Of a stretch of 64,000 nucleotides of DNA, positions 38,397 through 61,920 are shown piece by piece (position 1 is the first letter of the stretch; every line of letters begins with the position of its first letter). The DNA is from a virus. Under the pieces are notes generated by a model. The model was not told the origin of the DNA. It saw nothing but the letters and a program-made list of their open reading frames with translations, and made no database searches. Position numbers and translations under genes: made by a program. Location: IMG/VR virus record IMGVR_UViG_3300027747_004417. One strand, given 5' to 3'.

Positions 38397-39479
38397 ATGA
38401 ACTTCACAGAGTGGTTAGAAAAAACCGGCAAAACAAAGCTCCTATCAGAAAAAGCGGTCCGCTCAGGAACCGCCCATTGGGCTTATCCCGATGGGTATAT
38501 GAGAAGTCACTATTCTTCTCTGTACTTCACGCCTACAGCAGCAGATGCTGTTCAAAAGATGGGGCCAAAAACTGATGAGGAAGAAGTTGATCATGGGCAA
38601 AAAACTTATGCTCACCATGAGCGTATGATTAAGCACGAAAGAACTCCCTCGACCCTAAAGTCGGCAACGCAGGTCGAATGCCATGGATTAGACTTTAAGG
38701 AACATCTAAGCATACAGCAAGATTATGAAGTTTTAATGAGTCTCGATGAAGTGGACTTGGTAAAGCTGCTCGCCAGCCCATCTATGTTTGCTGCCGGGGC
38801 CGCAGGTAACATACTAGGACAGGCTGTTAGGGGATCGGGAAATATAGTTGGTGGAGGACTTGATGCTTTAGGAGGACTAGGCTCAAGTGCCGTAGGTGCC
38901 CTTCAATACCTAGGTGGCAATAAAGCAGCAAGAGAAAAGGCCAAAAAAAGACTAAAATCTGGCCTCGGCGGTATCGCAGGAGGAGCAGGCAAGGTCTTAA
39001 GAGGTGCGGCTCAAATAGCTGCTACCCCTGTTACTGCACCTATTAGGGGAGCACAAGTTGTAGATGATCCGGGATCATTGAGCGGAGTCTTTGCTCCCAA
39101 TGATCCTGATAGAAACTATTGGCAAGATTTATTTGGACTTGCTTCTGGTTCCGAAAGAAAAGAAGAACAGCCCAAGACCAAAGAGGTTTCCAAAGCTGAG
39201 AGCGAACAATTAGAAAAAGTTAAGTCTGTTAGGTCTGCTGTGATAAATGGATCAAAAGTTCTACATGACGCTCCTGACGAATGGGCGAGGCTTGTAGAGT
39301 CTTTAAGAAACGCTCTTACCGCAAAAGAAGCGATACGCATTATGTCTTATATGAAGAAGAAGTTTCCCGAAGCTTATAGGGGAGCATTAGATAGAGCCAG
39401 ACAGTTAAGCAGAAGCAGGCCTTCAACTAATCCATCGGGTCTTTTAAGATCCGGTTCTCGAAGACCTAAGCCATTCTAA
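38397..39479 (+). CDS. Hypothetical protein with CTS-like N-terminus and Gly/Ala-rich segment (360 aa)
   Basis: Starts MNFTEWLE; glycine-zipper-like middle region. Confidence 0.75.
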   Translation: MNFTEWLEKTGKTKLLSEKAVRSGTAHWAYPDGYMRSHYSSLYFTPTAADAVQKMGPKTDEEEVDHGQKTYAHHERMIKHERTPSTLKSATQVECHGLDFKEHLSIQQDYEVLMSLDEVDLVKLLASPSMFAAGAAGNILGQAVRGSGNIVGGGLDALGGLGSSAVGALQYLGGNKAAREKAKKRLKSGLGGIAGGAGKVLRGAAQIAATPVTAPIRGAQVVDDPGSLSGVFAPNDPDRNYWQDLFGLASGSERKEEQPKTKEVSKAESEQLEKVKSVRSAVINGSKVLHDAPDEWARLVESLRNALTAKEAIRIMSYMKKKFPEAYRGALDRARQLSRSRPSTNPSGLLRSGSRRPKPF

Positions 39480-39483
39480 AATA

Positions 39484-39510
39484 ATAGCCCTCCATTTTGT
39501 GAAGGGCTAT
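39484..39510. terminator. Hairpin between convergent genes, probable intrinsic terminator
   Basis: atagccct / agggctat 8-bp stem; T-rich tail on the minus strand. Confidence 0.5.
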
Positions 39511-39526
39511 CAAACCGACTCCGAAA

Positions 39527-39700
39527 TTAGTCTTTCAGTATAACGTATAATGCATGAATTATTCCTGGTATGTAGCCCAGAAATGTAAGAACTACGTTTA
39601 CAACTAACTGCAAACCAAGTCCTTTTTTGATTGCTACCCCTACTGGTGGTAGGAATATTGCTAACAATAATGCAACTAAGTCTAAATCTTCTTTTTCCAT
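39527..39700 (-). CDS. YqaE/Pmp3 family small membrane proteolipid (57 aa)
   Basis: LLLAIFLPPVGV..NVVLTFLGYIPGIIHALYVI; start moved to ATG 39700 with GGAGGT RBS. Confidence 0.9.
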   Translation of the reverse strand: MEKEDLDLVALLLAIFLPPVGVAIKKGLGLQLVVNVVLTFLGYIPGIIHALYVILKD

Positions 39701-39790
39701 GTTTACCTCCTTGTAACTATATTTATCATTTTTGCAATTCATTTTCTAAAAAACACACCAAAAACTAAATATTGTTGAGGAAAAATACCA

Positions 39791-40489
39791 ATGAATTTTA
39801 GAAAATGGCTTTATGAAGTTGTCGCCCAAGAAGAATTTGGTGATGAAAACCACAACAATAAAAAAGAGATAGTTGTTTTAGTTGGACCGCCTGCTGTAGG
39901 GAAGAGTACGTTCATAAAAAACAAGTTCCCCAAAGACATGGTGTACCTAGTGAGCAGAGACAACATAGTCGATGAGGTTTCATCTTCTTATGGCATGACT
40001 TACGACAACATGTTTGAAACGCCTCCTAGCGACTCTGAAATAGGGTCTAAAGTTTCTGGCAAAGAAAACTTTGGTGTTGTGATACAGGCTCCTCCTTGGA
40101 TGAAATGGGCCACTCGCGTTTATTCCAACATTCAAGAGGCAAACGATTTAATTAACAAAATGTTAGAACAAGAATTTAAAAAGGCCGTAGACTCGGGCAA
40201 ACACGTTGTTGTAGACATGACCAACATGACAATAGGAGCAAGAAAAGGAGCTTTAAAGTACGTAGAAGGCAAAGACTTTTTTAAGAGGGCAATAGTATTC
40301 ACGCTACACGAGTCAGATCTGCCTGAACTTTTAAGAAGAATGAAGACAAGAAGCGAACAGATAAAAGCAAATGGAGGGTCTAAAACTATAGGGGCTGATG
40401 TTATAGATCGTATGATTAAAAGCTTTCAACAAATTGGTCCTGATGAAGGGTTTGATAAAGTCGATACCTTCAGTTCTTTTGCCCCTTAG
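39791..40489 (+). CDS. P-loop kinase (polynucleotide-kinase/AAA_33-like) with CTS-like N-terminus
   Basis: VLVGPPAVGKST Walker A, VSRDNI, VVVDMTNMT..ARK; starts MNFRKWLYE. Confidence 0.8.
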   Translation: MNFRKWLYEVVAQEEFGDENHNNKKEIVVLVGPPAVGKSTFIKNKFPKDMVYLVSRDNIVDEVSSSYGMTYDNMFETPPSDSEIGSKVSGKENFGVVIQAPPWMKWATRVYSNIQEANDLINKMLEQEFKKAVDSGKHVVVDMTNMTIGARKGALKYVEGKDFFKRAIVFTLHESDLPELLRRMKTRSEQIKANGGSKTIGADVIDRMIKSFQQIGPDEGFDKVDTFSSFAP

Positions 40490-40959
40490 ACTTTGCTTGT
40501 TACCATACCTGAGTAATCTGTTCCGCCTGTTTTGATTATTACAGGCTTAGAGTCGCCCAGTTCTTCTATTGCAGTCTGTGCCTTAGCACTTTTTGAAAAG
40601 AATTGTTTTATCTCGTTAATCACTCCCTTTATGACTGCTTTGCCTGCTTGTTCCTCTTTCATATTCTCTCCCATGAAATCATTAAACATTTCTTCAAGAT
40701 CTAGAGAGTAAGCTTTTCCAAATGGCTCTGTGTCTTTTTCTTTTTGTACTCTATAGGCTAAAGATCTTCCTATTTCGTATATTCTTATCCCTTCAAAAGG
40801 GAGATCTTTATTGTCAGACTTTACATAGATGTATGAGTCTTCATGATCTATATGGTTATAAGTGTGCAACCCAGACTCTTTAAGAGCTTTTAAGACGATT
40901 TTTAAGTGCCTTCTTGATTCTCTTTCTTTTCTGTCAACGAATTCTAAGAATTGTTTCAC
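40486..40959 (-). CDS. Hypothetical protein with CTS-like N-terminus
   Basis: MKQFLEFV; AGGAG RBS, GTG start. Confidence 0.7.
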   Translation of the reverse strand: MKQFLEFVDRKERESRRHLKIVLKALKESGLHTYNHIDHEDSYIYVKSDNKDLPFEGIRIYEIGRSLAYRVQKEKDTEPFGKAYSLDLEEMFNDFMGENMKEEQAGKAVIKGVINEIKQFFSKSAKAQTAIEELGDSKPVIIKTGGTDYSGMVTSKV

Positions 40960-40981
40960 CTTTTCTCCTTTGATTGACTTG

Positions 40982-42319
40982 TTAGCACTGTCTCATTAAA
41001 ACTTCTGGAGCCGAGGGTACACACCTCATTATAACTTTTAGGTCACTAGGATTGCCTGAGTATGGTATTTCTTTAAGCACCATGCCCGAGAACCCAGATG
41101 AAACTTCTTTTATCGTGTTAAACTGAGCGGTTAAAAAGAGCATACCATCTATTCTTTCTAAGAAGTCTATTTCCTCTTTCATTGGTTTGCCATCTTCATC
41201 AACCTCACCAGTCTCTTTGCTATATTGTATTTTTATGTCAATGTAAGGAGTGATCGAACCATTGTCATCTATCATGGCCTCAGAGTTTGTACTCTGAATC
41301 ATTTTAACAACAATTTTTCCATCTGTATAAGCATCCTTTATACTGCCAGATATATCCCAACCTAACGTGTATATTGTACCATCTTCGCCAACTATGTTGA
41401 TCAAGAACCCTCTTTTCTTGAACATGTCGGCAATGCTTTCGATTATTACTCTTTTTCTTAGAACATCCTTTTCTTCAGGAGAACCTTCTTCAAGCCTTCT
41501 TTGCTCAGGGTCTGTTAGATACTTTGAAGCATCCTCTTCTTTTAGGCACCATTTGCCGATATCAACTCTTCCCCATTTGTCATTATATCTTGTAGATATT
41601 CTTATGGAGTAATCTCTCTCGTTGTATATAACGTCTTCATTGTTTCCACCCGTGCCTACTTGAACTCCTCCTATAATCGATGATATAAACTTACGGTGTA
41701 GGTCCCCTTTCATACCTAAAAGACCTTTTAGTTTAATAAACACATTATTAAGGTCTGGTGTCTTTTGAAAAGAGGCATCCATGTGATTCACTAAAGAAAC
41801 CGTTGGATTATTTCTATCAAGATCCTCTTTAACGAGTCTTCTTACTTCTTTGCTTGCCTTGTCAATATTTGCATGTTGTCTTAAGAAACATATTTGTAGG
41901 TTGTCCTCAACAAACTTTCTGGGATAGGAATCTAGATCTTCATCTCTAACTTTTTGTATTAATTCAATTAGCTTGTTGACATCGCCTTTTATAGATTCTT
42001 TAAAGTAGTTGTTTTTCCACTGTTCAAAGTCTGCACTTTCTTTTTCTTCCGGCATGTCAGGGGCCACAGGATCCTGACTCACGTCTGGCATTTCTTGGCT
42101 CTGATCCTGGCTCTGTGCTTGGTCCGTTTCGCCGTTTTCTTGGTTAGATACGTTCGGGTCTTCTTGAGGGGCATTGCCCATTTGATTCATTTGGGCGTTT
42201 GGGTCTTGGGTTTGTCCCGCCTGTGGATTGGCACCCATATCTGGCGAAGCCATGCCTTGTTGGCCTTGCATCCCCGTCTCATCTTCTTCTTTTAACCATT
42301 CTTCTATTGCGTATCTCAT
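40982..42319 (-). CDS. Hypothetical protein with CTS-like N-terminus and Q/P/D-rich disordered linker (445 aa)
   Basis: MRYAIEEWLKE; AGGAG RBS. Confidence 0.75.
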   Translation of the reverse strand: MRYAIEEWLKEEDETGMQGQQGMASPDMGANPQAGQTQDPNAQMNQMGNAPQEDPNVSNQENGETDQAQSQDQSQEMPDVSQDPVAPDMPEEKESADFEQWKNNYFKESIKGDVNKLIELIQKVRDEDLDSYPRKFVEDNLQICFLRQHANIDKASKEVRRLVKEDLDRNNPTVSLVNHMDASFQKTPDLNNVFIKLKGLLGMKGDLHRKFISSIIGGVQVGTGGNNEDVIYNERDYSIRISTRYNDKWGRVDIGKWCLKEEDASKYLTDPEQRRLEEGSPEEKDVLRKRVIIESIADMFKKRGFLINIVGEDGTIYTLGWDISGSIKDAYTDGKIVVKMIQSTNSEAMIDDNGSITPYIDIKIQYSKETGEVDEDGKPMKEEIDFLERIDGMLFLTAQFNTIKEVSSGFSGMVLKEIPYSGNPSDLKVIMRCVPSAPEVLMRQC

Positions 42320-42320
42320 C

Positions 42321-42866
42321 CTACTCCTTCTTTTTCTTCTTGGCTTGATTTATGGCCTTGATCAATTCTTTTCTGCTGAAGTCCGCCTCAGAACCTATAT
42401 TAAAATTGTTTTGCTGCATGGCATTAAGGTGGGGTCCTGAATATGCATACGTGTTTTTTAGCTTTAACCTTGTCATAAGATCTGCGGCCTTAAGCATCTT
42501 GTCTTGTAAATCTGTTTTTATTTTGACAAGATTCACTAATGCTTCTTTTGACGAAGTCGTCGCATCGCCTTCATTTATTACCATTTCTGCAAAATTATCT
42601 ATGTAATCACTCACCTGTTTTCTGTCTTCTTTAATGTCTGTTAGTATGCCGGTAATAACATCCATGTATTGTTCGTCGCTTATCAACATTTCTTTTTGTT
42701 CTAGACTAGGAGTCATAGCAACGTTCATCTTAGGAACCATGCTCTCTATGTCTTCCGGTCTTATTTCGTTTGCATCAACGTCTAATACGTCATTTTTTTG
42801 CGTAATTAGGGGCTCACCCTCGATTATGACCTCTGCCTCTAATTTTTGTTCTTCTTGTTTTGTCAT
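42321..42866 (-). CDS. Hypothetical helical protein, weakly T4 gp16 small-terminase-like
   Basis: EALVNLVKIKTDLQDKML and QQNNFNIGS resemble gp16 segments; the ORF is solid, the product call is weak. Confidence 0.3.
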   Translation of the reverse strand: MTKQEEQKLEAEVIIEGEPLITQKNDVLDVDANEIRPEDIESMVPKMNVAMTPSLEQKEMLISDEQYMDVITGILTDIKEDRKQVSDYIDNFAEMVINEGDATTSSKEALVNLVKIKTDLQDKMLKAADLMTRLKLKNTYAYSGPHLNAMQQNNFNIGSEADFSRKELIKAINQAKKKKKE

Positions 42867-42908
42867 GTTGTAATATATAGATTATAAGGTCTTAGAAATG
42901 GAAACAAT

Positions 42909-43205
42909 ATGTCAAGACACAACTTGAGTCTATCCCAACTATCAGATACCGTACTAAGAAACGATGAAAGACTTAAAGTTGTTATAAATGAGCAAGAAAA
43001 CATAAAAAAAAGCTTTTCTAGTTTAGAAGAAAAGACCCAAAAGCTTGAGATCAAAGTAGAATCGGCCTCCATGAGGATTGGCTCTCATGATGCAAAATGG
43101 TCAACAATAATGGATATGGTCTGGAAATGTGCTTTGATGATAATAGCTGGCTACATTTTATATGCACTAGGACTGCAAGCCGATTTAGCCTTTCCTCCTC
43201 CTTAA
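42909..43205 (+). CDS. Coiled-coil protein with C-terminal transmembrane helix (holin/hemolysin-like architecture)
   Basis: Heptad region then WKCALMIIAGYILYALGL. Confidence 0.55.
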   Translation: MSRHNLSLSQLSDTVLRNDERLKVVINEQENIKKSFSSLEEKTQKLEIKVESASMRIGSHDAKWSTIMDMVWKCALMIIAGYILYALGLQADLAFPPP

Positions 43206-43247
43206 AAAAATGTTGACCTACTAAATAAATAGATAAACGAGGTACAA

Positions 43248-44723
43248 ATGAGATTTTCAAACTATATTCAGCTAAGGGAAGCTTCTTCAAAAGAGCCAAG
43301 TTTTATTACATCAAAGATAAAGCTGCAAAAGGAAACAGGCTCAAAGGAATTTTCTCCTTTTACTGTTAACAAAAGCTCTAGGGCAAATTTAAGGCCTATA
43401 ATAAAAGCGTTCTTAAGTTCTAATCAAGTCGGTTTGGGTTACACCACTATAGACAAGTCAAAAGGCGAGGTTGAGCCACAACTTAAGAAGAAAGCTTTGT
43501 ATCTCACTGGTGGTGCTGTTCGTGACCATCTAAAGGGCAAGACACCAAGAAACTATGACCTTGTAACAGACGCAACTATTAGTGAAATAAAGATGATTCT
43601 AGATCAATCAGAGGAAGACTTTACAGAAGTCAAGCCAAGATCACAGAAGCACAAAGATGACTCAAGATATAAAGATCTTCCAACAACCGCTAAGGGTAAG
43701 AAATTTTATGTTTCTAGATGGGATAAAAAAGGAAAAGAGTTAGAGGTCACAATAGAAATAAATGGAGAAGAATTTAACATAGCTCCATTAAGTAAAAGTT
43801 CAAAGAGTAGAAGAGTAGAACCAGATGAAGGGCTAATTGCTCCTTCTATAGAAGATGACGCTTCAAATAGGGACTTAACAATAAATTCTTTGTACATACC
43901 ACTTGGAACACCTGACGGCGATAACTCTGAACTGCTTGATCCGTACGGCGGAATTAACCATTTAAAAAACGGTCAAATAAAGTTTGTAGGCGACAAAATA
44001 GAAGACAGGCTTAAAGAAGACCCAATGACAGCGTTTAAGGTTTTGAATTTGAACTCACGTTACGGTGGATCGAGCCTTTCTAAAGAGTACGAGAAAACTA
44101 TTAAAGGACATATTAAGAATATAGCATCTCTGCCAAAAGAAGACTTAAAGAAAGAATTCATATCAGGATTAGAGCACCCAGACTCAGATCCAAGAGGGTA
44201 TATGAAGTCAGCTTACGGCTTGGATCTCCTGAGACTAGTCTTTCCAGACGTAGAATTTAATCCACAAGACCTACCAGAGAACTTTAGGGGCGACAGATGG
44301 CTATCTACAGCTTGGATGCTTAGAAACAACTCTCCCGACTCGGTTAAAGAGCTTCTTTCGTCCAATGGTTGGACGGATCAAGAAGCAAATGACGTTTCAT
44401 TCTTGGTTAAGCTATACAGCTGGGCCTCAAAAGAAGGCTTTAGCCCTGATTCTTTTTACGACATTAAGTCTGCTCATACCGGACTAACGAAGTCTAAAAT
44501 AAAGGAATGGATGAAAATGGTCGATTTAGATAAAGATGAATTCAATAAATTTATTGATTGTGATTCAAGCGACCTAACTCCATATGTGGCGGATTCTTAC
44601 GGAAAAAAGACTCTTAACCCCTTATTTCGTAAAGTCTTAGGAAGAACTCCAATAGGTAAGGAATTCGATTACGTAAAGAAGAGTTTATTTAAAAACAGGT
44701 GGAAAGACACCCTAGGTCAATAA
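43248..44723 (+). CDS. Class II CCA-adding/poly(A) polymerase family nucleotidyltransferase, divergent active site
   Basis: LYLTGGAVRDHLKG..NYDLVTDAT, IEDDASNRDLTINSL, DPYGGINHL..IKFVG..RLKEDP. Confidence 0.85.
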   Translation: MRFSNYIQLREASSKEPSFITSKIKLQKETGSKEFSPFTVNKSSRANLRPIIKAFLSSNQVGLGYTTIDKSKGEVEPQLKKKALYLTGGAVRDHLKGKTPRNYDLVTDATISEIKMILDQSEEDFTEVKPRSQKHKDDSRYKDLPTTAKGKKFYVSRWDKKGKELEVTIEINGEEFNIAPLSKSSKSRRVEPDEGLIAPSIEDDASNRDLTINSLYIPLGTPDGDNSELLDPYGGINHLKNGQIKFVGDKIEDRLKEDPMTAFKVLNLNSRYGGSSLSKEYEKTIKGHIKNIASLPKEDLKKEFISGLEHPDSDPRGYMKSAYGLDLLRLVFPDVEFNPQDLPENFRGDRWLSTAWMLRNNSPDSVKELLSSNGWTDQEANDVSFLVKLYSWASKEGFSPDSFYDIKSAHTGLTKSKIKEWMKMVDLDKDEFNKFIDCDSSDLTPYVADSYGKKTLNPLFRKVLGRTPIGKEFDYVKKSLFKNRWKDTLGQ

Positions 44724-44817
44724 TTTTACCAAATTGCATTATTTTTTATTTTGCTAATATCCGTTATCTCTGTGACCGTCCTGGATATATACTATAGACG
44801 TCAAAAGGAGATGCGAT

Positions 44818-45198
44818 ATGAGTTCAAAACCCTATAAATCTTACAGGAAGTTAGTTTCTTTACTTAAGGAGAAGTGCCCTTTGGCATACCCAGTTAGTGT
44901 TAGAAGAAAAGAAATAAGCGATTTTGACGGTGACTGCTCACTACAGTCTAAGAAATTCTTTATTAGAATAAACAAGTCTTTGAACGAATCGGCCGCAATA
45001 GATACTTTGATCCATGAATGGGCACACGCTAGAGCGTGGAACCATCTGCATGATAAGTTGTCTTGGGAGGAATTTGAAGAAAGATCCCACGATGCTTCTT
45101 GGGGGGTTGCATATAGTGAAGTATACAAAACATACGAACAAAACTTTTTTCCCTCTAACACTCCGATTTATAAATGTGGCAAGTTCAAAATTAAGTAG
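44818..45198 (+). CDS. HExxH zinc metallopeptidase-like protein (SprT/IrrE-like)
   Basis: DTLIHEWAHA and a downstream HDASWG. Confidence 0.7.
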   Translation: MSSKPYKSYRKLVSLLKEKCPLAYPVSVRRKEISDFDGDCSLQSKKFFIRINKSLNESAAIDTLIHEWAHARAWNHLHDKLSWEEFEERSHDASWGVAYSEVYKTYEQNFFPSNTPIYKCGKFKIK

Positions 45199-45241
45199 TT
45201 TTTACTCTAATTCATTTAGTGGAAGACACAAATGAGGACAG

Positions 45242-46102
45242 ATGGACTATTTTTTAAGCGTTCCAAATTCGACATATTTTTATTGGCAACTAGAATTGCT
45301 AATACAAAGCTTTAAAGATCTAAACAAAGAAGAAAATCTCTCTATATTTATTTATTCTCGGCCTGAAGATAGCACACAGTACCTGAATAACATGTTCTCT
45401 AAGAATCTAATTGCTCACAAGAAAAAGATTTATACAAACAACCCTGGGTTGGTTAAAGGATGCCCTGAGCTTAACAAAATTTACAATCTTCTAACAGCCG
45501 TAAACTCTGGGTACATAAAGCAACCTTTTGTTCTGTTGGAGCCCTGCACCGTATTTCGAAAGGACTACTTCTTTCCTGAGCCGGATGCTTCGACATTTGC
45601 GTTTGCGGTTGATCCTTTCTTTACTGTAGAAGAAGTAGAAAAGAATGTTGGGCCTTTTTACGAGTGGTTTAACTTAGAAAAAAGTGTTTTTGAATCAAGC
45701 TGGATTCCTATAGGAGAAGTTTATGCATTTAATAATCTTACCTCCGATTTCTTTTCTTCTTGTGTGATTATAGCTGAGAAACTAGCTTTACATCAAATGC
45801 TTGATAATAAAAAAGTTTGGGAACGAACTGCTGACTTGGCCATAGCAATTTGTGTTTTAGTAAAGTCCTCCCAGGTGTCCTGCAGAGGTGATTGCTCAAT
45901 AGTTGGCCCTATTAACTCTGACTTTGATTCCTTCTTAGTAGGTTATAAGGATGGTTATCCTCCTACATTTTTGAGATCTATGTATCCGTTTAACCCTCTC
46001 TCTTTTGGTGATCCAATAGAAGAACTCTCCAAAATAAATTATACAAATAACTCAAGCTATATTTCAAACATAGCAAGGAGGATAATTGCAAGAAGATCGT
46101 AA
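45242..46102 (+). CDS. Putative glycosyltransferase resembling plant/algal peptidyl O-glycosyltransferases (HPAT/SGT-like)
   Basis: SVPNSTYFYWQLELLIQSF, ELNKIY and FVLLEPCTVFRK recall the YFDWQ..SF / NKP / ILDxD motif order; overlaps patatin and sits upstream of the multi-GT. Confidence 0.4.
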   Translation: MDYFLSVPNSTYFYWQLELLIQSFKDLNKEENLSIFIYSRPEDSTQYLNNMFSKNLIAHKKKIYTNNPGLVKGCPELNKIYNLLTAVNSGYIKQPFVLLEPCTVFRKDYFFPEPDASTFAFAVDPFFTVEEVEKNVGPFYEWFNLEKSVFESSWIPIGEVYAFNNLTSDFFSSCVIIAEKLALHQMLDNKKVWERTADLAIAICVLVKSSQVSCRGDCSIVGPINSDFDSFLVGYKDGYPPTFLRSMYPFNPLSFGDPIEELSKINYTNNSSYISNIARRIIARRS

Positions 46103-51681: not shown

Positions 51682-51710
51682 TTGACAAGCAAAAGAGTGA
51701 TGGTTATAAT
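51682..51710 (+). promoter_or_regulatory. Consensus sigma70 promoter
   Basis: TTGACA (51682-87), 17-nt spacer, TATAAT (51705-10). Confidence 0.85.
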
Positions 51711-51716
51711 AGAGGT

Positions 51717-51851: not shown

Positions 51852-51860
51852 AGGAAAAAC

Positions 51861-52475: not shown

Positions 52476-52492
52476 TTGTGCATAAATAATGC

Positions 52493-52987: not shown

Positions 52988-53602
52988 TCACCAAGGTCTA
53001 GAAGACTTTAGCCCCACAGACTTGGCATATCTAGCTATGTTGCAAGACCAGTAACCAGGAGTGGTCCTGTCTTTCTTTTGCGAGCATTTGTGTCTTGCTC
53101 TAAAACTCTTTGCTCTAGCAGGGCTGCTGTTTTTTATTGAAAGGCCTGATGCCTTTGAGTCCCCAAATCTAACGGTCTTAACCTTACCGCCAGATGTTTT
53201 TACAAAAACCTTAAACTTTTTTGGTCCGCCTGGTGTTCTCATTGGTTTGTTTAAAGGTCCCTTTTTATTCCCTGATTTGTTCTTTTTTCCTTCTGATATC
53301 AATTCTTTATCAACAATCGGAGCATCTAAGTGAAAAACTCTTCCATTAACTTCCACAACAGAACCTATGTCCGTATCTAAAAGATCTGCGTCTTCGTCGT
53401 TGACCTTTATTAGATCATTTTCGTATAAATCTCTAACCTCATTGATTAGATCAAAGTAAGATTTGCTATAAACTCTAAAAGCATTCTCACATAGAGAAAT
53501 TTTATTGTCTATGTGGTATTGAAGATTTTCACTTATTTTTACCTTCTTTACAAGCTCCATTGGAGTTGAAGGCTTATTGTTTACATAATCTTTAAAGCTC
53601 AT
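52988..53602 (-). CDS. Conserved-type T4-like phage protein with basic C-terminal domain (204 aa), CTS-like start
   Basis: Start moved to ATG 53602 (MSFKDYV); C-terminus KKFKVFVK..VRFGD..SFRARHKC..PGYWSC. Confidence 0.7.
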   Translation of the reverse strand: MSFKDYVNNKPSTPMELVKKVKISENLQYHIDNKISLCENAFRVYSKSYFDLINEVRDLYENDLIKVNDEDADLLDTDIGSVVEVNGRVFHLDAPIVDKELISEGKKNKSGNKKGPLNKPMRTPGGPKKFKVFVKTSGGKVKTVRFGDSKASGLSIKNSSPARAKSFRARHKCSQKKDRTTPGYWSCNIARYAKSVGLKSSRPW

Positions 53603-53641
53603 AAAATTATGTATGCTGCCAATGGTTTTTTTGGGTTTTTG

Positions 53642-53649
53642 TATAAATA
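53642..53649 (+). promoter_or_regulatory. T4 late-type promoter TATAAATA
   Basis: Exact consensus 5 nt before ATG 53655. Confidence 0.6.
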
Positions 53650-53654
53650 TTCTC

Positions 53655-53924
53655 ATGGAACTCCCATTCTCAGAAAAAAGCCTAGGGAACAACAACTTCA
53701 TTAGAACCTTTTCTAGCGATGTTGATTCGCATGAGCTCAAATGGCACAGAGACAAAGAAGATAGGACTGTTACGCCCTTAAACAAGAATGACTGGCTTTT
53801 TCAGCGAGACAATGAACTACCCCGTCCTCTGGACAAAGAAATCACTATAAAAGCAAATGAATGGCATAGGGTAATAAAGGGAACAAGCGAATTAGTAGTG
53901 AGAGTCTTAAAACATGAAAAATAA
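53655..53924 (+). CDS. Small cupin-like hypothetical protein (89 aa)
   Basis: ELKWHRDKEDR..IKANEWHRVIKGT; start moved to ATG 53655. Confidence 0.55.
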   Translation: MELPFSEKSLGNNNFIRTFSSDVDSHELKWHRDKEDRTVTPLNKNDWLFQRDNELPRPLDKEITIKANEWHRVIKGTSELVVRVLKHEK

Positions 53925-54867: not shown

Positions 54868-54869
54868 TA

Positions 54870-55739
54870 CTAAAGGTTAGATACAAAATTCTTAAAAGTA
54901 CTGTTTGCTAAAGTGAAAAGCTTCTCTGTTTCATCCATTAAGTCGTTCACTTCACTGTAAGAAATACCATATCCAAAAACAACGCATCTGACACAATCAT
55001 TTGGAACGTTTATTCCTGAATATACACACTGTCTAACTATTGGGTCCAATAACTTCGACGTGTCTTCCTTGGGATGTGTTTTGTTAAATTCAATTAGGCT
55101 ATCAGGAAGAATAGGTAAAAGATTACTTTTTTCTTTATCAAACTCTCTGTAGTCTGATCCGCCGTTATTTCCATGACCAAAAAATCCTGCGTACTTTCCC
55201 TCCAAATGGTTCTTTAAAAGCTTAATGTTCTTTTCATTCTTTTCTATTGCTCTTGTCTTTTTGCTATTCTTTATGTCGTCTTCTCCCAACATATCTTTTG
55301 CTTCATCTGCTGTTATCGTGAGGCTTGCACAAACGAGTCTGTCAAAGAAACTCTTAACCACGCTGCTGCAAGCACTCCAGTTGATGGGTGTGATTACAAA
55401 AAAACCATCACATTCTTCTAGTTTCTTATAGACATCTTCTTCATGCATTAGATCCTTTGGATCAGATTTCTTGCTATAGCAATCACAGGGCCAATGACAG
55501 TGAAAGCTGCTAGTGCTTGTACATCCTTTGCACGGCAGAACGTTTATACCGTCACATTTAACAGATAAGTCTATGGTTTCAAAAGATACCGAATCTTTAA
55601 AATCTTCTTTTATCCTGTTAGCTAATTTGTGCGTCTTGCTTAACTCGTCAGGACAGCAATTAGAAGATCTGGCGGATCCTACTATTAGGACAACCTTTTT
55701 TTTATTCTTGGTTTTTACGAATTCTAGAAATGTTGACAT
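54870..55739 (-). CDS. Iron-sulfur flavoprotein / NADPH-dependent FMN reductase family protein, CTS-like start
   Basis: VVLIVGSAR, PCKGC..HCHWPCDC, DGFFVITPINW..KSFFDRL; starts MSTFLEFV. Confidence 0.85.
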   Translation of the reverse strand: MSTFLEFVKTKNKKKVVLIVGSARSSNCCPDELSKTHKLANRIKEDFKDSVSFETIDLSVKCDGINVLPCKGCTSTSSFHCHWPCDCYSKKSDPKDLMHEEDVYKKLEECDGFFVITPINWSACSSVVKSFFDRLVCASLTITADEAKDMLGEDDIKNSKKTRAIEKNEKNIKLLKNHLEGKYAGFFGHGNNGGSDYREFDKEKSNLLPILPDSLIEFNKTHPKEDTSKLLDPIVRQCVYSGINVPNDCVRCVVFGYGISYSEVNDLMDETEKLFTLANSTFKNFVSNL

Positions 55740-55777
55740 AAATTAAAACTTGTATTTGAAGTACTACATATATAGCG

Positions 55778-56569
55778 ATGAAGATACTAGTTTGCGACCC
55801 ATCGTTTTATCAAATAGATTATGAAATTAATCCCTGGATGAGTGTGTCACATAAGGCGGACACAAACTTAGCTATTCAACAATGGAATACACTCATAAAT
55901 GAATTGCTGGGACTGGGAGTTGATGTAGTAAGAATACCACCTCAGTCCGGTCTGCCCGACATGGTGTTCACCGCCAATGGTGGAGTAATGGCATATAATT
56001 ATGTTATTTTGTCCAACTTTAAACACAAAGAAAGGCAAGATGAAAAAGAGTTCTTTAAGAAGTGGTTTAATGAAAACGGCATTAGAGTTATAGAAATCAG
56101 CAACGGCATTAGATTTGAAGGAGCGGGAGATTGCCTTGTAAAAGACCATACGGTCTTTATGGGATACGGATTTAGAACTGACCAAGAAGCTTATTACGAT
56201 AACATTTGGGATGTTTTGGATATGAGGTCTTTTAGATTAAGACTTTTTGATCCGTACTTTTACCACCTTGATACTTGCTTTTGCCCATTAAACAAAAATC
56301 AGATTCTTATTTACCCTGAGGCGTTTGACAAAAACGATCTAGTGAATCTGAGAAGAAATAATTTTGAGCTACTCTGTGTTCCTAAAGAAGATGCTCATAA
56401 GTTTGCATGTAATGCCGTTCTAGTGGGTGACCATATTTTGATTCCAAAAGGCTGTGATGAGACTAGGGATATACTTACTCAAAACTACTATATTGTTCAC
56501 GAACTAGACATGAGCGAGTTTATCAAAGCCGGTGGGGCTTGTAAGTGCTTAACTATGGTCGTTGGCTGA
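55778..56569 (+). CDS. Amidinotransferase / dimethylarginine dimethylaminohydrolase superfamily enzyme
   Basis: YEINPWM, PDMVFTANGG, FEGAGD, YHLDT, GGACKCLT. Confidence 0.92.
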   Translation: MKILVCDPSFYQIDYEINPWMSVSHKADTNLAIQQWNTLINELLGLGVDVVRIPPQSGLPDMVFTANGGVMAYNYVILSNFKHKERQDEKEFFKKWFNENGIRVIEISNGIRFEGAGDCLVKDHTVFMGYGFRTDQEAYYDNIWDVLDMRSFRLRLFDPYFYHLDTCFCPLNKNQILIYPEAFDKNDLVNLRRNNFELLCVPKEDAHKFACNAVLVGDHILIPKGCDETRDILTQNYYIVHELDMSEFIKAGGACKCLTMVVG

Positions 56570-57011
56570 GAATGTCTTTTATTTCTAAAAGAGTTTTTTC
56601 CTGCAGAGTTAGCTCACCTTCTTCTTTTTCCTGCTCGAATACACAATATAACAATTTTTGAATAAGTAAAAACAAAAATAGAGATACAATCAAAAAAGTA
56701 ATCATGTCAGCAAAAAACAACCCAAAAGGAATGTCTTTCCCACAAAAGGTCACTTTCCAGTTTTTATAGCTTGATTCAAAAGGCAATAATATACTCACTA
56801 TAGGCATTAAAACATTATCTACTAAGCTAGATATTATCTTGTTGAAGGAACCACCTATTATTACTCCAACCGATAAGTCTAAAAACCTTCCTCTGAAAAC
56901 GAACTTTTTGAACTCTTTTAATAAGTCAAAAGCCTCTCTTCTAGAAATTAGTTCTTTATTCAATTGATTGTTATGCCTATATCTCATAAAAACAAAATTA
57001 TTTTTATACAC
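56553..57011 (-). CDS. mscL: Large-conductance mechanosensitive channel MscL (true start probably near TTG 56963)
   Basis: EFKKFVFRGRFLDLSVGVIIGGSFNKIISSLVDNVLMP; second TM; LLEIKDIL tail. Confidence 0.88.
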   Translation of the reverse strand: MYKNNFVFMRYRHNNQLNKELISRREAFDLLKEFKKFVFRGRFLDLSVGVIIGGSFNKIISSLVDNVLMPIVSILLPFESSYKNWKVTFCGKDIPFGLFFADMITFLIVSLFLFLLIQKLLYCVFEQEKEEGELTLQEKTLLEIKDILSQRP

Positions 57012-57572
57012 ATTCCTAAAAATGCTGGTACCTCTATTGTGGAGTCAAAAGAGTTAGAGTTCTCAACAGTAGGCCACCAATGCTTTTCACACTACAAAGA
57101 TAGATATCCAGTTCAGTGGGAAAATTATACAAAAGCTTGTATAGTAAGAAACCCTTGGGACAGGTTTGTTTCATGCTATGAATATGCAAGGATGACAAAA
57201 AGTTATTGGCACTCTAACGAAGGATACCCCTCTAGTAAATTTGGGCCACACCCTGATTACAAGAAAGTCAAAAATCTTTGCTTTGAGGGTTTCACAAGAA
57301 AGTTCTTTAACAAAGAACTTAATCTGAGTCATCCATGCTGGGCTCCACAAAAGAATTGGGTGTTCTCAGAGGAAAAACTAATGGTAGACGAGGTGTTTAG
57401 ACTAGAGAGCATAGAAGATAACAAAAAGTTTAAAGAAATTTTTGGTGTTATAGAAAAGCTTAATCAAAGCAAGAGGTCCGAATATAGGTCCTACTATAAA
57501 ACAAAAGAGTCTATAGACATAATAGCGGAAGCCTATAGAGATGATATAGAATTTCTTAACTACTCTTTTTAG
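56964..57572 (+). CDS. Carbohydrate sulfotransferase (Sulfotransfer_2-type)
   Basis: IFIHIPKNAGTSI 5'-PSB and VRNPWDRFVSCY 3'-PB motifs. Confidence 0.9.
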   Translation: MIVMPISHKNKIIFIHIPKNAGTSIVESKELEFSTVGHQCFSHYKDRYPVQWENYTKACIVRNPWDRFVSCYEYARMTKSYWHSNEGYPSSKFGPHPDYKKVKNLCFEGFTRKFFNKELNLSHPCWAPQKNWVFSEEKLMVDEVFRLESIEDNKKFKEIFGVIEKLNQSKRSEYRSYYKTKESIDIIAEAYRDDIEFLNYSF

Positions 57573-57876
57573 CCTTATTCTTTCTTTTTCTTCTCCAAGG
57601 CCAATATCCATAAAGTCCACAACACCCATAGGGTTTATTTGCAACGTCGGTCGTTTTTGTTCCCCCAGAATTGTTGCCAACGACAGATCCGGTACTTCCA
57701 CCGGTACTTCCACCGGTACTTCCACCGGTACTTCCACCGGTACTTCCACCGGTACTTCCACCGGTACTTCCACCGGTACTTCCACCGGCACTTCCACCGG
57801 CACTTCCACCGGCACTTCCACCGGCACTTCCACCGGCACCGTCTTCTGTTATTCTAAGCCACTTCTTGAAATTCAT
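57556..57876 (-). CDS. Small Gly/Ser-repeat protein with CTS-like start and basic tail (106 aa)
   Basis: MNFKKWLRITE, (GGSA)4(GGST)8, WPWRRKRKNKAKK. Confidence 0.75.
   Translation of the reverse strand: MNFKKWLRITEDGAGGSAGGSAGGSAGGSAGGSTGGSTGGSTGGSTGGSTGGSTGGSTGGSTGSVVGNNSGGTKTTDVANKPYGCCGLYGYWPWRRKRKNKAKKSS
57689..57838 (-). repeat. 12-bp coding tandem repeat ccgg(t/c)acttcca, about 12 copies
   Basis: Directly visible. Confidence 0.97.
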
Positions 57877-57893
57877 AATTTATATACTATAAT
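57866..57893 (+). promoter_or_regulatory. sigma70-like promoter upstream of the hairpin-controlled sulfotransferase
   Basis: TTGAAA-N16-TATAAT. Confidence 0.55.
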
Positions 57894-57907
57894 GTTCTGT
57901 AATTTAA

Positions 57908-57951
57908 CTTTGCTCCCTAGTCTTATAAATAATGTAAACTAGGGAGCAAAG
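57908..57951 (+). promoter_or_regulatory. RBS-sequestering 14-bp hairpin with T4 late promoter TATAAATA in its loop
   Basis: ctttgctccctagt (57908-21) / actagggagcaaag (57938-51); TATAAATA 57924-31; AGGGAG 57941-46; TTG start 57953. Confidence 0.85.
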
Positions 57952-57952
57952 A

Positions 57953-58555
57953 TTGTTAAGTTCAAGTAATAAAATATTTGTTATTGGTTTTCCAAAATGT
58001 GGAACAACTTCATTGCAAGAATCTTTTTTGCGTGTTGGGATGCCATCTATTCATTGGGGTAATTCTATTGATAACACCCATGTTTTCCTCGCAGCACATA
58101 AAATAGAAACCGCTAAGAAGGAAGGATTGCCACTTCTGACTTATTTAAGTGACTACAAAGCTTTTACTCAAATGGAAGCTTGCATCTATGAATATTGTTA
58201 TTGGCCTCAAATGCTGGACACTCCCGCATTAGATAGTCAACACCCAAATAGCAAGTTTATATTTAACGACAGAAATACTGAAAAGTGGATAAAATCTGTT
58301 AGTAGATGGGTCGTTCATGGTCAAAACTTAAGGGAAAGATTCATTAAATTCGACATTCCTGGACTACCTAAGGGCAAGGGAAAAGAAGATAAAGAACTTG
58401 AAGATTGGTATCTCTGGCATAAAAACAACATGATTGATTATTTTAAGAACAAGGATAACTTTATCGTTTTTAATATTGAAAATGATGATCCTAAAAAATT
58501 AGGAGAATTCCTTCAAATTGAAAATTTCTCTTTGCCACACTTAAACAGGAGTTGA
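57953..58555 (+). CDS. P-loop sulfotransferase family protein
   Basis: KIFVIGFPKCGTTSL, SKFIFNDR..WIKSV, and WY..H...I.YF..K motifs. Confidence 0.85.
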   Translation: MLSSSNKIFVIGFPKCGTTSLQESFLRVGMPSIHWGNSIDNTHVFLAAHKIETAKKEGLPLLTYLSDYKAFTQMEACIYEYCYWPQMLDTPALDSQHPNSKFIFNDRNTEKWIKSVSRWVVHGQNLRERFIKFDIPGLPKGKGKEDKELEDWYLWHKNNMIDYFKNKDNFIVFNIENDDPKKLGEFLQIENFSLPHLNRS

Positions 58556-58556
58556 A

Positions 58557-58793
58557 ATGCCGTCTAAAAGTAAAAGCCAACAAAGATTGTTTGGTATGGT
58601 TCACGCCTGCCAGAATAAGGGTAAGTGTGCTAGCAAAGAAATAAAGAAGATAGCAAAAAGTATATCAAAGGAAGATGCTAAAGACTTCGCTAAAACAAAG
58701 CACGAAGGATTGCCGAACAAAGTAAAAAAGAAAAAGAAAAATAAAAAGATGTCCTTTAAAGAATACGTTGAGTTGAGAGAAGGCACAAAATGA
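58557..58793 (+). CDS. Small basic phage protein (MPxKSKxQQR type)
   Basis: MPSKSKSQQRLFGMVHA..DFAKTKHEGLP; GGAG RBS. Confidence 0.7.
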   Translation: MPSKSKSQQRLFGMVHACQNKGKCASKEIKKIAKSISKEDAKDFAKTKHEGLPNKVKKKKKNKKMSFKEYVELREGTK

Positions 58794-58942
58794 ACTCCTT
58801 TATTAAATGGTTAGAACAAAAACATCCGGAACTTTTCTCTGCTATAGAAATTATAAAAGAACCAAAAAGAAAAAAGTCTAACATTAAGCACGATGGATGG
58901 AAGATAGTAAAAGACCACAAAGAGGCTGACAATGCAGTTTAA
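58790..58942 (+). CDS. Small protein with CTS-like start (50 aa), not in ORF track
   Basis: ATGA overlap with the upstream stop; MNSFIKWLEQKHPELFSAIEIIKEPKRKKSNIKHDGWKIVKDHKEADNAV. Confidence 0.65.
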   Translation: MNSFIKWLEQKHPELFSAIEIIKEPKRKKSNIKHDGWKIVKDHKEADNAV

Positions 58943-60506
58943 AGATTGGATTCTAAATGAGGAAATATTTCCCAATAAAACTGCTACGGTGTTTCATAGA
59001 ACTAAAGATATAAACTATGTTGAAAGAATTTTTCGTTCTGGTTTTAAACCAGGTGGTGGGGCAATGTATGGTCCGGGTTTGTATACAACATTTGACCTAC
59101 GCAGTCAGTTTAAACCTCAAATGAGTCTATATGGTGAGTTTGTTATAAAATTTAAGGCAACTAATTTAGACAAGTACTTAATTACTTCTTTTAACGTTGC
59201 TAAATATGTGTTTGGAAGAAACTATAAAATAAGTGACCAGTTTAAATCTTTTGGTTGGAGTCAAACAATAAGACCTAAAAGCATGGACGTTGAAACCTAT
59301 GGTACTGGGTTTGAAGAATATGACCTTTTACAAAAAAGTAGCACATACAGCAGCGATCTGGCTTTTAAAATATATGAAGAAAATAGATGGATAGCACATA
59401 GTTTAACAGGCTTGATATACAACGGAAGACAAGACGGCTATTGTTTAGTTAAGTATGAACCTATTAATGACGGTTTAGTTATGGTGGGATACGCTCAAGC
59501 TCCTGTTAATGATCAAAATAAGCTACAAGAACTAGAAGCTAATGAGGGATGGATTACTTCCAATAGATCCGGAAAGATAAAGCACATGTACAGCAAGGCT
59601 GACCTTTGGAACTCAGGAAGAAACACCATAGATTCTACAAAGGCATTTAGGCTGTCCAGAAACAGCTTCCAAGAAAAGCTAGAGGACATTCTAGAAGACT
59701 CTAAAGGCTCTGTAAAACAAGATAAAGAAGGCGTTCACTTGAAGAGGCTACAGTGGCTTTTGATTAAAGAAGAAGTCGATGAAGAAAAATTAATTTATAT
59801 TATAAGAAGGTATCCTAATAAAGATATTGTTAAAACCACTGTCTTAACCCTTGCCAAAAATAAACCAAATTTGATAACTAAAAAGCTTGTAGAAAATTTA
59901 GATCACTCAGCTTATGATACTTATGGATTATATTCTATCATTATAGACCTTAATAGCCTTCTTAAGGAAGATGTTATTGAATCGATGATATCAGCGGCTA
60001 ATAATTTCGGAAAAAATAAAAAGCCTTTTCTCAAATCCTTAGCAGAAAAACAACCAAGGCTATCACATAAAAATGTACTCTTTTTAATAAAGTGTTATGG
60101 AGTCTTTGGCGGAGGGAACTACGATTCAGCGGTAGACATAATAAATTTTATGGGCGAATTAGGATATTTTTCCTCTTTAACGTTTAAGATAATTGATTAT
60201 GTCTTTGATGATATTGTTAGCGATTTAACATCTTCTTTTAGCTTCAAAAAGACAACAGGCAGACCCGATGACTTTGGTATTATTCAAATAGTTAAAGCTT
60301 TTGCATCTCATAAATCTATGAGTTTGACCGAGCTTTCCACCCTAATCAGATCGGCTTATAACCTACTTTATTCACAAGATGAAAGAAGTGAACAGAGTCT
60401 TAGAAAATTTACTATAAAGGTTGCTAAAAACTTAGAAGGCAATGAGACCTATAGTAGTTTTATTAGCAAGGTTTTGAGCCCAAGAGGTCTTGAGGCGGTT
60501 TCATAA
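58932..60506 (+). CDS. ADP-ribosyltransferase-fold (PARP/ART-like) N-terminal domain plus helical C-terminal region; CTS-like start
   Basis: TVFHRT..SGFKPGGGAMYGPGLYTT..LYGEFVIK; starts MQFKDWILNE. Confidence 0.65.
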   Translation: MQFKDWILNEEIFPNKTATVFHRTKDINYVERIFRSGFKPGGGAMYGPGLYTTFDLRSQFKPQMSLYGEFVIKFKATNLDKYLITSFNVAKYVFGRNYKISDQFKSFGWSQTIRPKSMDVETYGTGFEEYDLLQKSSTYSSDLAFKIYEENRWIAHSLTGLIYNGRQDGYCLVKYEPINDGLVMVGYAQAPVNDQNKLQELEANEGWITSNRSGKIKHMYSKADLWNSGRNTIDSTKAFRLSRNSFQEKLEDILEDSKGSVKQDKEGVHLKRLQWLLIKEEVDEEKLIYIIRRYPNKDIVKTTVLTLAKNKPNLITKKLVENLDHSAYDTYGLYSIIIDLNSLLKEDVIESMISAANNFGKNKKPFLKSLAEKQPRLSHKNVLFLIKCYGVFGGGNYDSAVDIINFMGELGYFSSLTFKIIDYVFDDIVSDLTSSFSFKKTTGRPDDFGIIQIVKAFASHKSMSLTELSTLIRSAYNLLYSQDERSEQSLRKFTIKVAKNLEGNETYSSFISKVLSPRGLEAVS

Positions 60507-60532
60507 ACTTTAAAAAAGATCAATAAAATACA

Positions 60533-60727
60533 ATGAACTTTAAAAAATGGCTGAATTTAACTGAAGTTGGCACTATGGCGTCCGGCCCAACAGGCGGCGG
60601 GGGCGATATAGCTCCATTTAAGGCGCCTATGGGATGGGGAGTTATAAGAAGAAACTGGCCTGCTATTGATCCCTTTTTCACTCAAAAAAGCAAGAAAAAA
60701 AGGTCTAGAGGGGTTGAAAAGAGTTAA
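60533..60727 (+). CDS. Small protein with CTS-like start and basic tail (64 aa)
   Basis: MNFKKWLNLTE..GGGGDIAPF..RRNWP..KSKKKRSR. Confidence 0.7.
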   Translation: MNFKKWLNLTEVGTMASGPTGGGGDIAPFKAPMGWGVIRRNWPAIDPFFTQKSKKKRSRGVEKS

Positions 60728-60732
60728 TTATA

Positions 60733-60760
60733 TTGACCCACAACTCATTTTAAGTATAAT
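60733..60760 (+). promoter_or_regulatory. sigma70-like promoter
   Basis: TTGACC-N16-TATAAT upstream of 60790. Confidence 0.65.
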
Positions 60761-60789
60761 GATTTTATGACTCTAACATAAAACATTAT

Positions 60790-61428
60790 ATGATTTTTAG
60801 ACCACCAATTAAAGATTATTTTTTCAATCATAAGGCATTAGAAAATAACGGTTTAAGCTGGAAGATGCTTCATGATGGCATCAATTATACCTATAAAACG
60901 TTAGATAAAATAGAAAGTTCATTGCTTGAAGAAGGAGCTCCAAGGCTATCAAGGATGGGAGAGCTAGCTACTCTTTCATCAATAATAGGAAATTTTTTCG
61001 CAACAGGAATTATCAAAAGCTCTAAGGGAGCCTTTGATCGAGCAGGCTCGAATAAATACCAAGATTTACGATCAAAAAAGTATCGCAACGTAGAAATCAA
61101 AATGTCTATAGAGAAAAACAAACCCAAAGCTCATCTTCCAAAAGAGGGTTTTTATCTCACATGTCGCTATGTGCTAGGCAATGAGGATGGGACTTACACC
61201 CTTAATAAAAGGGGAGATTTTATATGGATCTGGGAAATAAGATTTGGCTATCTGCGTAAAGAACACTTTAATCTGAGTTCAACTGAGAATGACTCTGGCA
61301 AGACTGCTGTTGTAAACTCTGTGGGAATGAAGAGATTAGTCCCTGTTTTCTTTAATCAAAATCATTGTCCTTATGGTGAAAAAAGTAAACTAAGAAAAAG
61401 CTTGTCTGTTATATGCAATACTAAATAA
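60790..61428 (+). CDS. PD-(D/E)xK restriction-endonuclease-like protein
   Basis: KYQDL..NVEIKMS resembles PD..ExK. Confidence 0.45.
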   Translation: MIFRPPIKDYFFNHKALENNGLSWKMLHDGINYTYKTLDKIESSLLEEGAPRLSRMGELATLSSIIGNFFATGIIKSSKGAFDRAGSNKYQDLRSKKYRNVEIKMSIEKNKPKAHLPKEGFYLTCRYVLGNEDGTYTLNKRGDFIWIWEIRFGYLRKEHFNLSSTENDSGKTAVVNSVGMKRLVPVFFNQNHCPYGEKSKLRKSLSVICNTK

Positions 61429-61432
61429 GTGC

Positions 61433-61528
61433 ATGGAAGTAAAAATATTAAGTGAGACACCGCTCAGGATGGCCGGAGCAGGTGGGCCTCCAAGAATAAC
61501 CCTAATAAAAATAGCGTCTAGTGGCTAA
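61433..61528 (+). CDS. Possible 31-aa peptide
   Basis: CTAAATA 5 nt upstream; MEVKILSETPLRMAGAGGPPRITLIKIASSG. Confidence 0.3.
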   Translation: MEVKILSETPLRMAGAGGPPRITLIKIASSG

Positions 61529-61536
61529 ATAGGGTT

Positions 61537-61920
61537 ATGAGGTCTTTTAACGAATATAAGGGAAACCAAGGCGTAGCTGCACTCTTTGGCAGCTTAATAA
61601 GCTATAGAGCTCAGGCTCATATTCTGCACCTATCAACAAAGAGCTTTTCTGAACACAAGGCACTAGAAAAGTTCTATGATTCCCTTAGTGACCTAACAGA
61701 TACCCTTATAGAGACCTACCAAGGACAATACGGTTTGGTAAATATAGACCAAGTACAAATTAAGTCCAATCAAGCATCGGACTTGTTAAAAAAGGTCGCC
61801 CAAGAAGCACAGGAAGCTCGTGATATCTTTGATAAAAAAGATACTCATTTACATAACATTCTGGATGAGTTAGTGTCTTTGACATACTCAACATTGTATA
61901 AAGTAAACAACCTAAAATAA
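61537..61920 (+). CDS. Ferritin/Dps-like four-helix bundle protein, CTS-like start
   Basis: AHILHL..SFSEHKALEKFYDSL..TDTLIETYQGQYG..NILDE; starts MRSFNEY. Confidence 0.7.
   Translation: MRSFNEYKGNQGVAALFGSLISYRAQAHILHLSTKSFSEHKALEKFYDSLSDLTDTLIETYQGQYGLVNIDQVQIKSNQASDLLKKVAQEAQEARDIFDKKDTHLHNILDELVSLTYSTLYKVNNLK

Follow-up and report, generated by a model that had tools for sequence, protein, structure and literature searches.

The capsid-targeting sequence (CTS) of bacteriophage T4 has been known since 1996 on the internal proteins (IPs) IPI, IPII and IPIII and on Alt (Mullaney & Black 1996; PMC9026906, PMC3012670). Suppressor genetics on IPIII assigned targeting to residues 4 and 7, and processing to residues 8 and 10 (PMC9026906), and reviews have noted that the CTS may allow T4-like phages to load varied proteins. 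In the papers searched the CTS is described for T4 and close relatives only, with no expansion to dozens of bearers per genome and no enzyme cargo in a huge phage. Here we analyse a stretch of viral DNA of 64,000 nucleotides (IMG/VR record IMGVR_UViG_3300027747_004417; the window), in which twelve open reading frames (ORFs) between positions 38397 and 61920 begin with similar short peptides. From sequence comparison this shared N-terminus, which we call the tag, is probably an expanded CTS of the T4 type carrying enzymes and small basic proteins; we would put the probability at about 0.7.

The nearest record to the window is LR756511.1, an unannotated sequence of 595,163 bp from an uncultured phage, with 44-50% amino acid (aa) identity and synteny over 0.5-45 kb of the window. 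It was analysed whole, as 1,094 called genes. The sequencing runs listed as containing the window DNA are freshwater metagenomes, with no RNA run among them.

A shared N-terminal peptide in the window and in a related genome

The sequence-only reading listed twelve near-identical N-terminal peptides on unrelated proteins. All twelve are present at the positions given, on the following genes, each of which is referred to below by the position of its start codon. A thirteenth tag-like peptide, at 58749, is included. A slash marks a candidate cut, and pI is the isoelectric point.

38397-39479 (+): 360-aa protein of no known family, MNFTEWLE..LSE, with a Gly-rich middle; pI 9.5
39791-40489 (+): P-loop kinase of 232 aa (AAA_33, polynucleotide-kinase-like), MNFRKWLYE; tag plus linker form a 27-aa extension
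40486-40959 (-): 157-aa protein of no known family, GTG start, (M)KQFLEFVDRKE; conserved beside a gp2-like gene
40982-42319 (-): 445-aa protein with variant tag MRYAIEEWLKEE, a disordered Q/P/D-rich linker of ~80 aa and a 350-aa domain
43248-44723 (+): nucleotidyltransferase of the CCA/poly(A)-polymerase family, 491 aa, MRFSNYIQLRE/A, with an 83-aa N-terminal extension
52988-53602 (-): 204-aa protein with probable tag MSFKDYV at an internal ATG and a DUF5754-like C-terminus; pI 9.8
54870-55739 (-): Cys-rich protein of FMN-reductase/flavodoxin fold, 289 aa, MSTFLEFVKTKNKKK, with the tag ahead of the domain
57556-57876 (-): 106-aa protein, MNFKKWLRITE, with a Gly/Ser/Thr repeat and basic tail; pI 10.2
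58749-58793 (+): orphan tag-like peptide MSFKEYVELREGTK at the C-terminal end of a DUF3008 ORF (58557-58793)
58790-58942 (+): basic mini-protein of 50 aa, MNSFIKWLE; highest score with a position-specific scoring matrix (PSSM) trained on LR756511.1
58932-60506 (+): 524-aa protein, MQFKDWILNE/E, with an N-terminal ADP-ribosyltransferase (ART)-like fold and a helical C-terminal half
60533-60727 (+): 64-aa Gly-rich protein, MNFKKWLNLTE, with a basic tail; pI 10.8
61537-61920 (+): DUF5856/Dps-like four-helix protein of 127 aa with partial tag MRSFNEYKG

Roughly one gene in three between 38 and 62 kb carries the tag, small basic Gly-rich proteins and enzymes alike. Its commonest residues are F at the first aromatic position, W, F or Y three residues on, then an aliphatic residue and then Glu. 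The observation of a shared peptide is confirmed, with 42319 and 61537 as partial matches. The pattern [FY]-x-x-[WFY] was scored in ten of the twelve (11 of 13 on counting the orphan, MSFKEYVELRE). In 42319 (MRYAIEEWLKE) an aliphatic residue replaces the first aromatic (I-x-x-W), and 61537 has the two aromatics without the aliphatic residue, resembling T4 IPI (MKTFKEFT). The proteins are indeed otherwise unrelated, in that no pair of the twelve is matched at BLASTP E <= 1 once the first 14 residues are removed.

Enrichment was measured with a strict motif, ^M-x(1,2)-[FY]-x-x-[WFY]-[LIVM], on a simple non-overlapping ORF call that gave 64 genes in the window, counting genes from their first ATG. 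Eight genes match (38397+, 39791+, 43248+, 55739-, 57876-, 58790+, 58932+ and 60533+), all at the first ATG of the frame, 1-7 codons past the upstream stop. The other four listed genes fall outside this count. The gene at 40959 fits the pattern and starts with GTG, with a good upstream Shine-Dalgarno sequence, AAAGGAG. That at 53602 also fits, and its start is probable, not certain, because the ATG lies inside a longer open frame; 42319 and 61537 are the partial matches. Eight of 64 (12.5%) compares with 0.5 expected from N-terminal composition, and the maximum in 200 composition draws was four. At internal Met residues of the window the motif occurs at 0.9% (binomial P about 1e-7 for 8/64). 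By region, it is found in 0 of 21 tail/baseplate genes (1-37440) and in 8 of 34 genes downstream. The comparison of N-termini with a background, proposed together with the original list, thus came out in favour of a genuine motif.

The same is seen in the related genome. In LR756511.1 30 of the 1,094 genes match, against 4.7 expected (binomial P about 2e-12); the background rates are 0.5% for internal Met residues and 0.4% for rejected ORFs. The bearers are dispersed across the entire genome, and a frequent form is MKTFxxWLE (e.g. MKTFNQWLE, MKTFSEWLE and MKTFAEWMEE). A PSSM trained solely on the LR756511.1 tags placed eight of the listed starts among the eleven best N-termini of the window; the other three were 42319, a 42-aa ORF, and an internal ATG wrongly called as the start of the 40486-40959 gene.

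The phage genome is 35-40% G+C and the codons for N, K and F are A/T-rich, so that an artefact of composition or of translation, from A/T-rich codons that follow the start or from simple chance in an AT-rich genome, has to be considered. It is very improbable. Compared with internal Met, and likewise with random N-termini of matched composition, the motif is enriched 14-fold, and its most conserved residue is Trp, encoded by TGG. T4, of similar G+C content, yields the strict motif in only 5 of 267 ORFs, i.e. IPII and IPIII (both MKTYQEFIAE), gp61.1 (MKTFKEFIKED) and two that are background. Within the tags synonymous codons vary freely. The F is encoded by both TTT and TTC, and the aliphatic position by eleven codons, five of them for Leu; third codon positions are 36% identical between tags, which is near random, compared with 57% for positions 1 and 2. 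Judged by these codons, selection is on the tag peptide and not on the DNA. Chance and codon bias are effectively refuted by the enrichment, the T4 control and the codon variation taken together.

In the left 37 kb of the window (1-37440) the minus strand carries a contractile-tail module, with baseplate wedge proteins similar to gp6, gp25 and gp53, a tape-measure-like ORF of 4,741 aa (22676-36901, -) and a gp2-like protector of DNA ends. We note two tag-like sequences there. An internal Met near 22876 (-), residue 4675 of the 4741-aa ORF and thus 66 residues from the end of the tape-measure-like protein, is followed by MKELFEQFLEML, with a tag-like PSSM score of 11.4; this may be chance or a nested start. 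The small conserved gene at 1674-1955 (-) has a tag-like NEFKKWMQD ~12 residues past its start, and its LR756511.1 orthologue has NDFRKWMS in the same position.

Correspondence with the T4 signal and head machinery

The two aromatic positions of the tag correspond to residues 4 and 7 of T4 IPIII. The N-terminus of T4 IPI reads MKTFKEFT...ITE. A cleavage-type site was defined as [LIVMFWY]-x-E within residues 4-20, and was scored independently of the search pattern. It is present in 35 of 38 strict tags, compared with 342 of 1,120 other N-termini (Fisher 8e-15) and with 6 of 17 internal matches to the pattern (Fisher 2.5e-5). L/I-x-E is kept despite variable spacing, as in WLYE, WILNE, IQLRE/A, WLRITE and WLNLTE. 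The site is weak in 53602, where the first is at residue 25, and in both 55739 and 61537 the sole hydrophobic-x-E site falls inside the tag.

LR756511.1 contains head genes of T4 type. One product matches Peptidase_S77 at 95.9 bits and shares 35% identity with T4 gp21, and its GELDHP and GMSSRG sequences align with the His85 and Ser140 motifs of gp21, with both residues kept. Its gene follows a large gene in the portal position and precedes, in the same array, a 310-aa gene at the place of the scaffold and the gene of a Gp23-type capsid protein (290 bits). The N-terminal region of the capsid protein aligns with the T4 gp23 propeptide (LLEG), and F-N-E/IATD is found at the position of L-T-E/AEIGG in gp23.

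Other LR756511.1 genes have similar starts. A NADAR-domain protein encoded ~1 kb from the capsid gene (L033:1964-2461, -) has the tag-like start MLTWTEFLEARQ. A tRNA_lig_CPD-like 2H-phosphoesterase (L027:11779-12324, +) is tagged, with MMNFAQWVENE, and a DnaG-like primase begins MVDFDSFVDW.

A short amphipathic helix is a shape common to many targeting systems, and the peptide might instead be an address or interaction helix for a target other than the head, such as a phage chaperone, a membrane or replication compartment, or a proteolytic timer. We regard this as distinctly unlikely. The conserved residues and their spacing coincide with the positions used for targeting and gp21 processing in T4, a protease and capsid protein of T4 type are present in the lineage (in LR756511.1), and none of the 21 tail/baseplate genes is tagged. 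A signal peptide was also considered and rejected; the true signal peptides of the window (51614- and 53914+) look quite different.

None of the computational tests able to refute capsid targeting, which the sequence-only reading had proposed, did so. It is favoured by the enrichment at true starts only, the match to the T4 residues, the hydrophobic-x-E site, and the conservation and modularity described below, while the protease and capsid protein are those read in the relative.

Tagged enzymes and modularity of the tag

The labels assigned from the sequence alone were borne out by Pfam for four proteins. The kinase (39791) matches PF13671 at 54.8 bits (cut-off 27), has the Walker A sequence GPPAVGKST and matches phrog_505, polynucleotide kinase, at 8.6e-12. 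The nucleotidyltransferase (43248) matches PF01743 from residue 84 at 70.9 bits (cut-off 23), with GGAVRD intact, and the flavoprotein (55739) matches PF03358 from residue 15 at 44 bits (cut-off 24). The protein at 61537, labelled as ferritin-like, is DUF5856/Dps-like (PF19174, 75.9 bits, cut-off 34.6; phrog_858, 1.5e-26). No close homologue of the tagged kinase was found in the cultured phages searched, and a search for related loci with the CCA-type enzyme as query gave no match. The kinase as query gave one close locus, which forms no part of the comparisons below.

The ART-like label for 58932 stands in part. The AlphaFold2 (AF2) model has a predicted local distance difference test (pLDDT) value of 75, and its best 50 VIA matches are all entries with an ART-fold domain, with Z scores of only 5.6-7.8. 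They comprise 49 known ART-superfamily proteins (MbcT, cholix, scabin, ParT, PARP10 and others) and a pre-ejectosome chain of cyanophage A4. Foldseek matches have E values of 3e-3 or weaker, and the atlas leads (ART-PolyVal, PARP/DarT and Arr) all score under 0.9. H22 (in H-R-T) and Y51 (in Y-G-x-G-L-Y) are invariant in 11 sequences. The candidate third catalytic position, residue 69, is E or D in eight and R or K in three, and no match to the ART-like domain was found by sequence, using phmmer against PDB sequences and Pfam. The fold supports an ART-like N-terminal domain, with putative enzymatic activity. We note that the model (window 58932-59621) aligns with residues 1418-1608 of the cyanophage A4 chain (9k3a_B), a capsid-internal ejection protein, over 140 residues with Z 6.2.

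The 350-aa domain of the 445-aa protein (42319) is confidently modelled, with pLDDT above 90 for residues 95-445 of the AF2 model, and no convincing fold match was found in Foldseek PDB, BFVD or VIA-wide searches. Residues 172-445 have a weak structural resemblance to the restriction endonuclease ThaI (Z 7.3). The family has W-[LM]-x-E near the N-terminus, before the Pro-rich linker. Its gene and that of an acidic 181-aa helical protein ending KKKKKE form a pair (40982-42866, -) beside the gp2-like gene, and orthologues of the pair are found in the same order in LR756511.1.

It had been suggested that the tag is an extension added to these enzymes, and this is what the domain boundaries indicate, with AAA_33 beginning at residue 28, FMN_red at 15 and PolyA_pol at 84. 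In the AF2 models each tag forms a short helix, modelled separately from the domain. In the ART-fold protein pLDDT is below 50 over residues 1-12; in the 445-aa protein it is about 61 for a helix of residues 3-14, followed by ~80 disordered residues.

The tag is conserved within families. Nearly all of the full-length flavoprotein homologues among 120 start M-x-x-F-x-E-[FY], and 10 of 10 homologues of 58932 start MNFKxWLLSEE, with M1, F3, W6 and E10 invariant. Orthologues in LR756511.1 keep it in the 157-aa protein (MLEFKEFIDKKE), the CCA-type enzyme (MRTTFLEFMGLKE followed by A) and the 445-aa protein (..LEDWLDQ). Close orthologues of the kinase are nearly all tagged. Among its distant homologues some are tagged ahead of the P-loop strand (MKTFIQWLNEE..), some start at the strand (MKKIYVLVGPP) and some have unrelated extensions. 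The window member of DUF5856 has an extension, as does that of the T4-like phage RB43 (MQTFNEIVE); those of the Kuttervirus phages GEC_vB_GOT and selz (Ackermannviridae), annotated as structural protein, are without one. The tag is a portable element that many unrelated genes of this huge freshwater phage have acquired.

Within ~200 nt at 58749-58960 (+) there are three tandem tag-coding segments, MSFKEYVELRE, MNSFIKWLE and MQFKDWILNE, the first of which is fused in frame to the C-terminus of DUF3008, without a gene body of its own. Three tandem tags, one of them bodiless, suggest exchange at tag sequences, and the arrangement looks like the footprint of gene exchange or deletion there, of the sort that has been proposed for the polymorphic IP loci of T4.

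Several observations weigh against the CTS reading or limit it. Two or three of the twelve matches are weak. The strict matches in LR756511.1 include likely false positives, i.e. a CAP-domain protein with a hydrophobic leader, a transmembrane start and SpoVR. The tagged proteins are more basic than the others in the window (P = 0.02), and no significant difference of this kind is seen in LR756511.1 (P = 0.12). The prohead protease of the window's own phage, expected about 25 kb upstream of the window, is presumed from this relative, and the 310-aa putative scaffold there has no detected sequence similarity to T4 gp22. In the flavoprotein the only candidate site is the F-L-E within the tag. Catalysis by 43248 is doubtful because its DxD (residues about 108-110) reads N-Y-D instead of the catalytic D-x-D; the LR756511.1 orthologue has DYD. 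By sequence 43248 belongs to the CCA-type family, and this copy may be inactive or altered. Of the five copies of the T4 late-promoter sequence TATAAATA in the window, none lies immediately ahead of a tagged gene. Lastly, T4 gp61.1 (NC_000866 18966-19130), a 54-aa hypothetical protein encoded by an early gene beside the primase gene, has a near-perfect CTS and, as far as we know, has not been reported from the head; the tag alone is therefore no proof of packaging.

The case of gp61.1, the tandem tags and the failure to find late promoters associated with tagged genes in the window would also fit a motif that is derived from a CTS with only some bearers packaged. The small basic late proteins would then be loaded, and the tags on enzymes would be relics of recombination between tag-coding segments or serve another interaction, perhaps as in T4 gp61.1. 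We think this unlikely. The tag is kept in proteins that have diverged to 47% (flavoprotein), 42% (ART-fold protein) and 50% (kinase) identity, and a relic is not expected to be retained over such divergence; moreover the tags of the enzymes retain the hydrophobic-x-E site. We favour packaging of enzymes and small basic proteins alike.

Proposed function and comparison with known systems

If the tag acts as a CTS, the short amphipathic peptide (aromatic, x, x, aromatic, aliphatic) would dock the newly made protein on the scaffolding core of the prohead. A gp21-type prohead protease would then cut after the Glu of hydrophobic-x-Glu, at or shortly past the tag, and the mature protein would remain in the head with the DNA and enter the host on infection. 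We infer these steps of docking, cleavage, packaging and injection for the tagged proteins.

A broader proposal, which we put forward tentatively and at somewhat less than even odds, is that the tag is a general export label of huge T4-related phages, from which an injected proteome including a kit for RNA-end repair and anti-defence could be read from the genome. The kit would consist of the polynucleotide-kinase-like enzyme, the 2H phosphoesterase, the CCA-type nucleotidyltransferase, the ART-fold protein, the NADAR enzyme that removes ADP-ribose, the flavoprotein and the Dps-like protein, and would act in the host ahead of any phage transcription. One use might be to undo, on entry, the damage done by host defences that cleave tRNA or ADP-ribosylate DNA.

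If the tag works as in T4, the proteins carried in by huge phages could be predicted from sequence alone, in thousands of uncultured genomes. The extra capsid volume of these phages would then deliver dozens of pre-made proteins, enzymes among them, and not just a few small inhibitors. This would open a concrete way into the first stage of infection and counter-defence, which is independent of transcription, and would provide a natural portable loading peptide for protein delivery in capsids of T4 type.

Three known systems may be compared with the tag. The heads of phiKZ-like giant phages (SPN3US and 201phi2-1) are loaded with many proteins including enzymes, which are trimmed after Glu by a prohead protease and ejected into the host (PMC5694885, PMC7411985). 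Their propeptides, however, are mostly at least 100 residues long, share no short motif and are cleaved at S/A/G-x-E; the protease is a diverged relative, and the head genes lie outside the gp23 and gp21 sequence families (PMC5694885, PMC7411985).

The polymorphic IP loci of T-even and T4-related phages are closer, with diverse small proteins that share the CTS alone and are thought to be anti-defence cargo (PMC9026906). The small Gly-rich proteins with basic tails at 57876 and 60533 are reminiscent of the T4 internal proteins. As described, the IPs are few, small and basic and are encoded at a single locus or at two (PMC9026906), whereas the tag described here is on dozens of proteins, including enzymes, dispersed over a 0.6-Mb genome.

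The closest counterpart is the T4 CTS itself. Both are N-terminal peptides of ~10 residues on otherwise unrelated proteins, in which positions 4 and 7 are aromatic, position 8 is aliphatic and a Glu lies two residues past a hydrophobic residue, which in T4 is the gp21 site. Both belong to lineages with a gp21-type protease and a gp23-type capsid protein (read here in LR756511.1), and the candidate cargo here, like that of T4, comprises small basic proteins and a large protein of probable ART fold, that at 58932, which would be the functional counterpart of Alt. Unlike Alt, which is in the R-S-E clade, 58932 would fall in the H-Y clade. The systems differ further in the number of bearers, 4-5 in T4 compared with at least 30 strict matches in LR756511.1 and about a third of the genes over 24 kb of the window. 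Trp is preferred here as the second aromatic, and the Glu follows after 0-4 residues. The candidate cargo here also differs from that of T4 in including metabolic and RNA-end enzymes.

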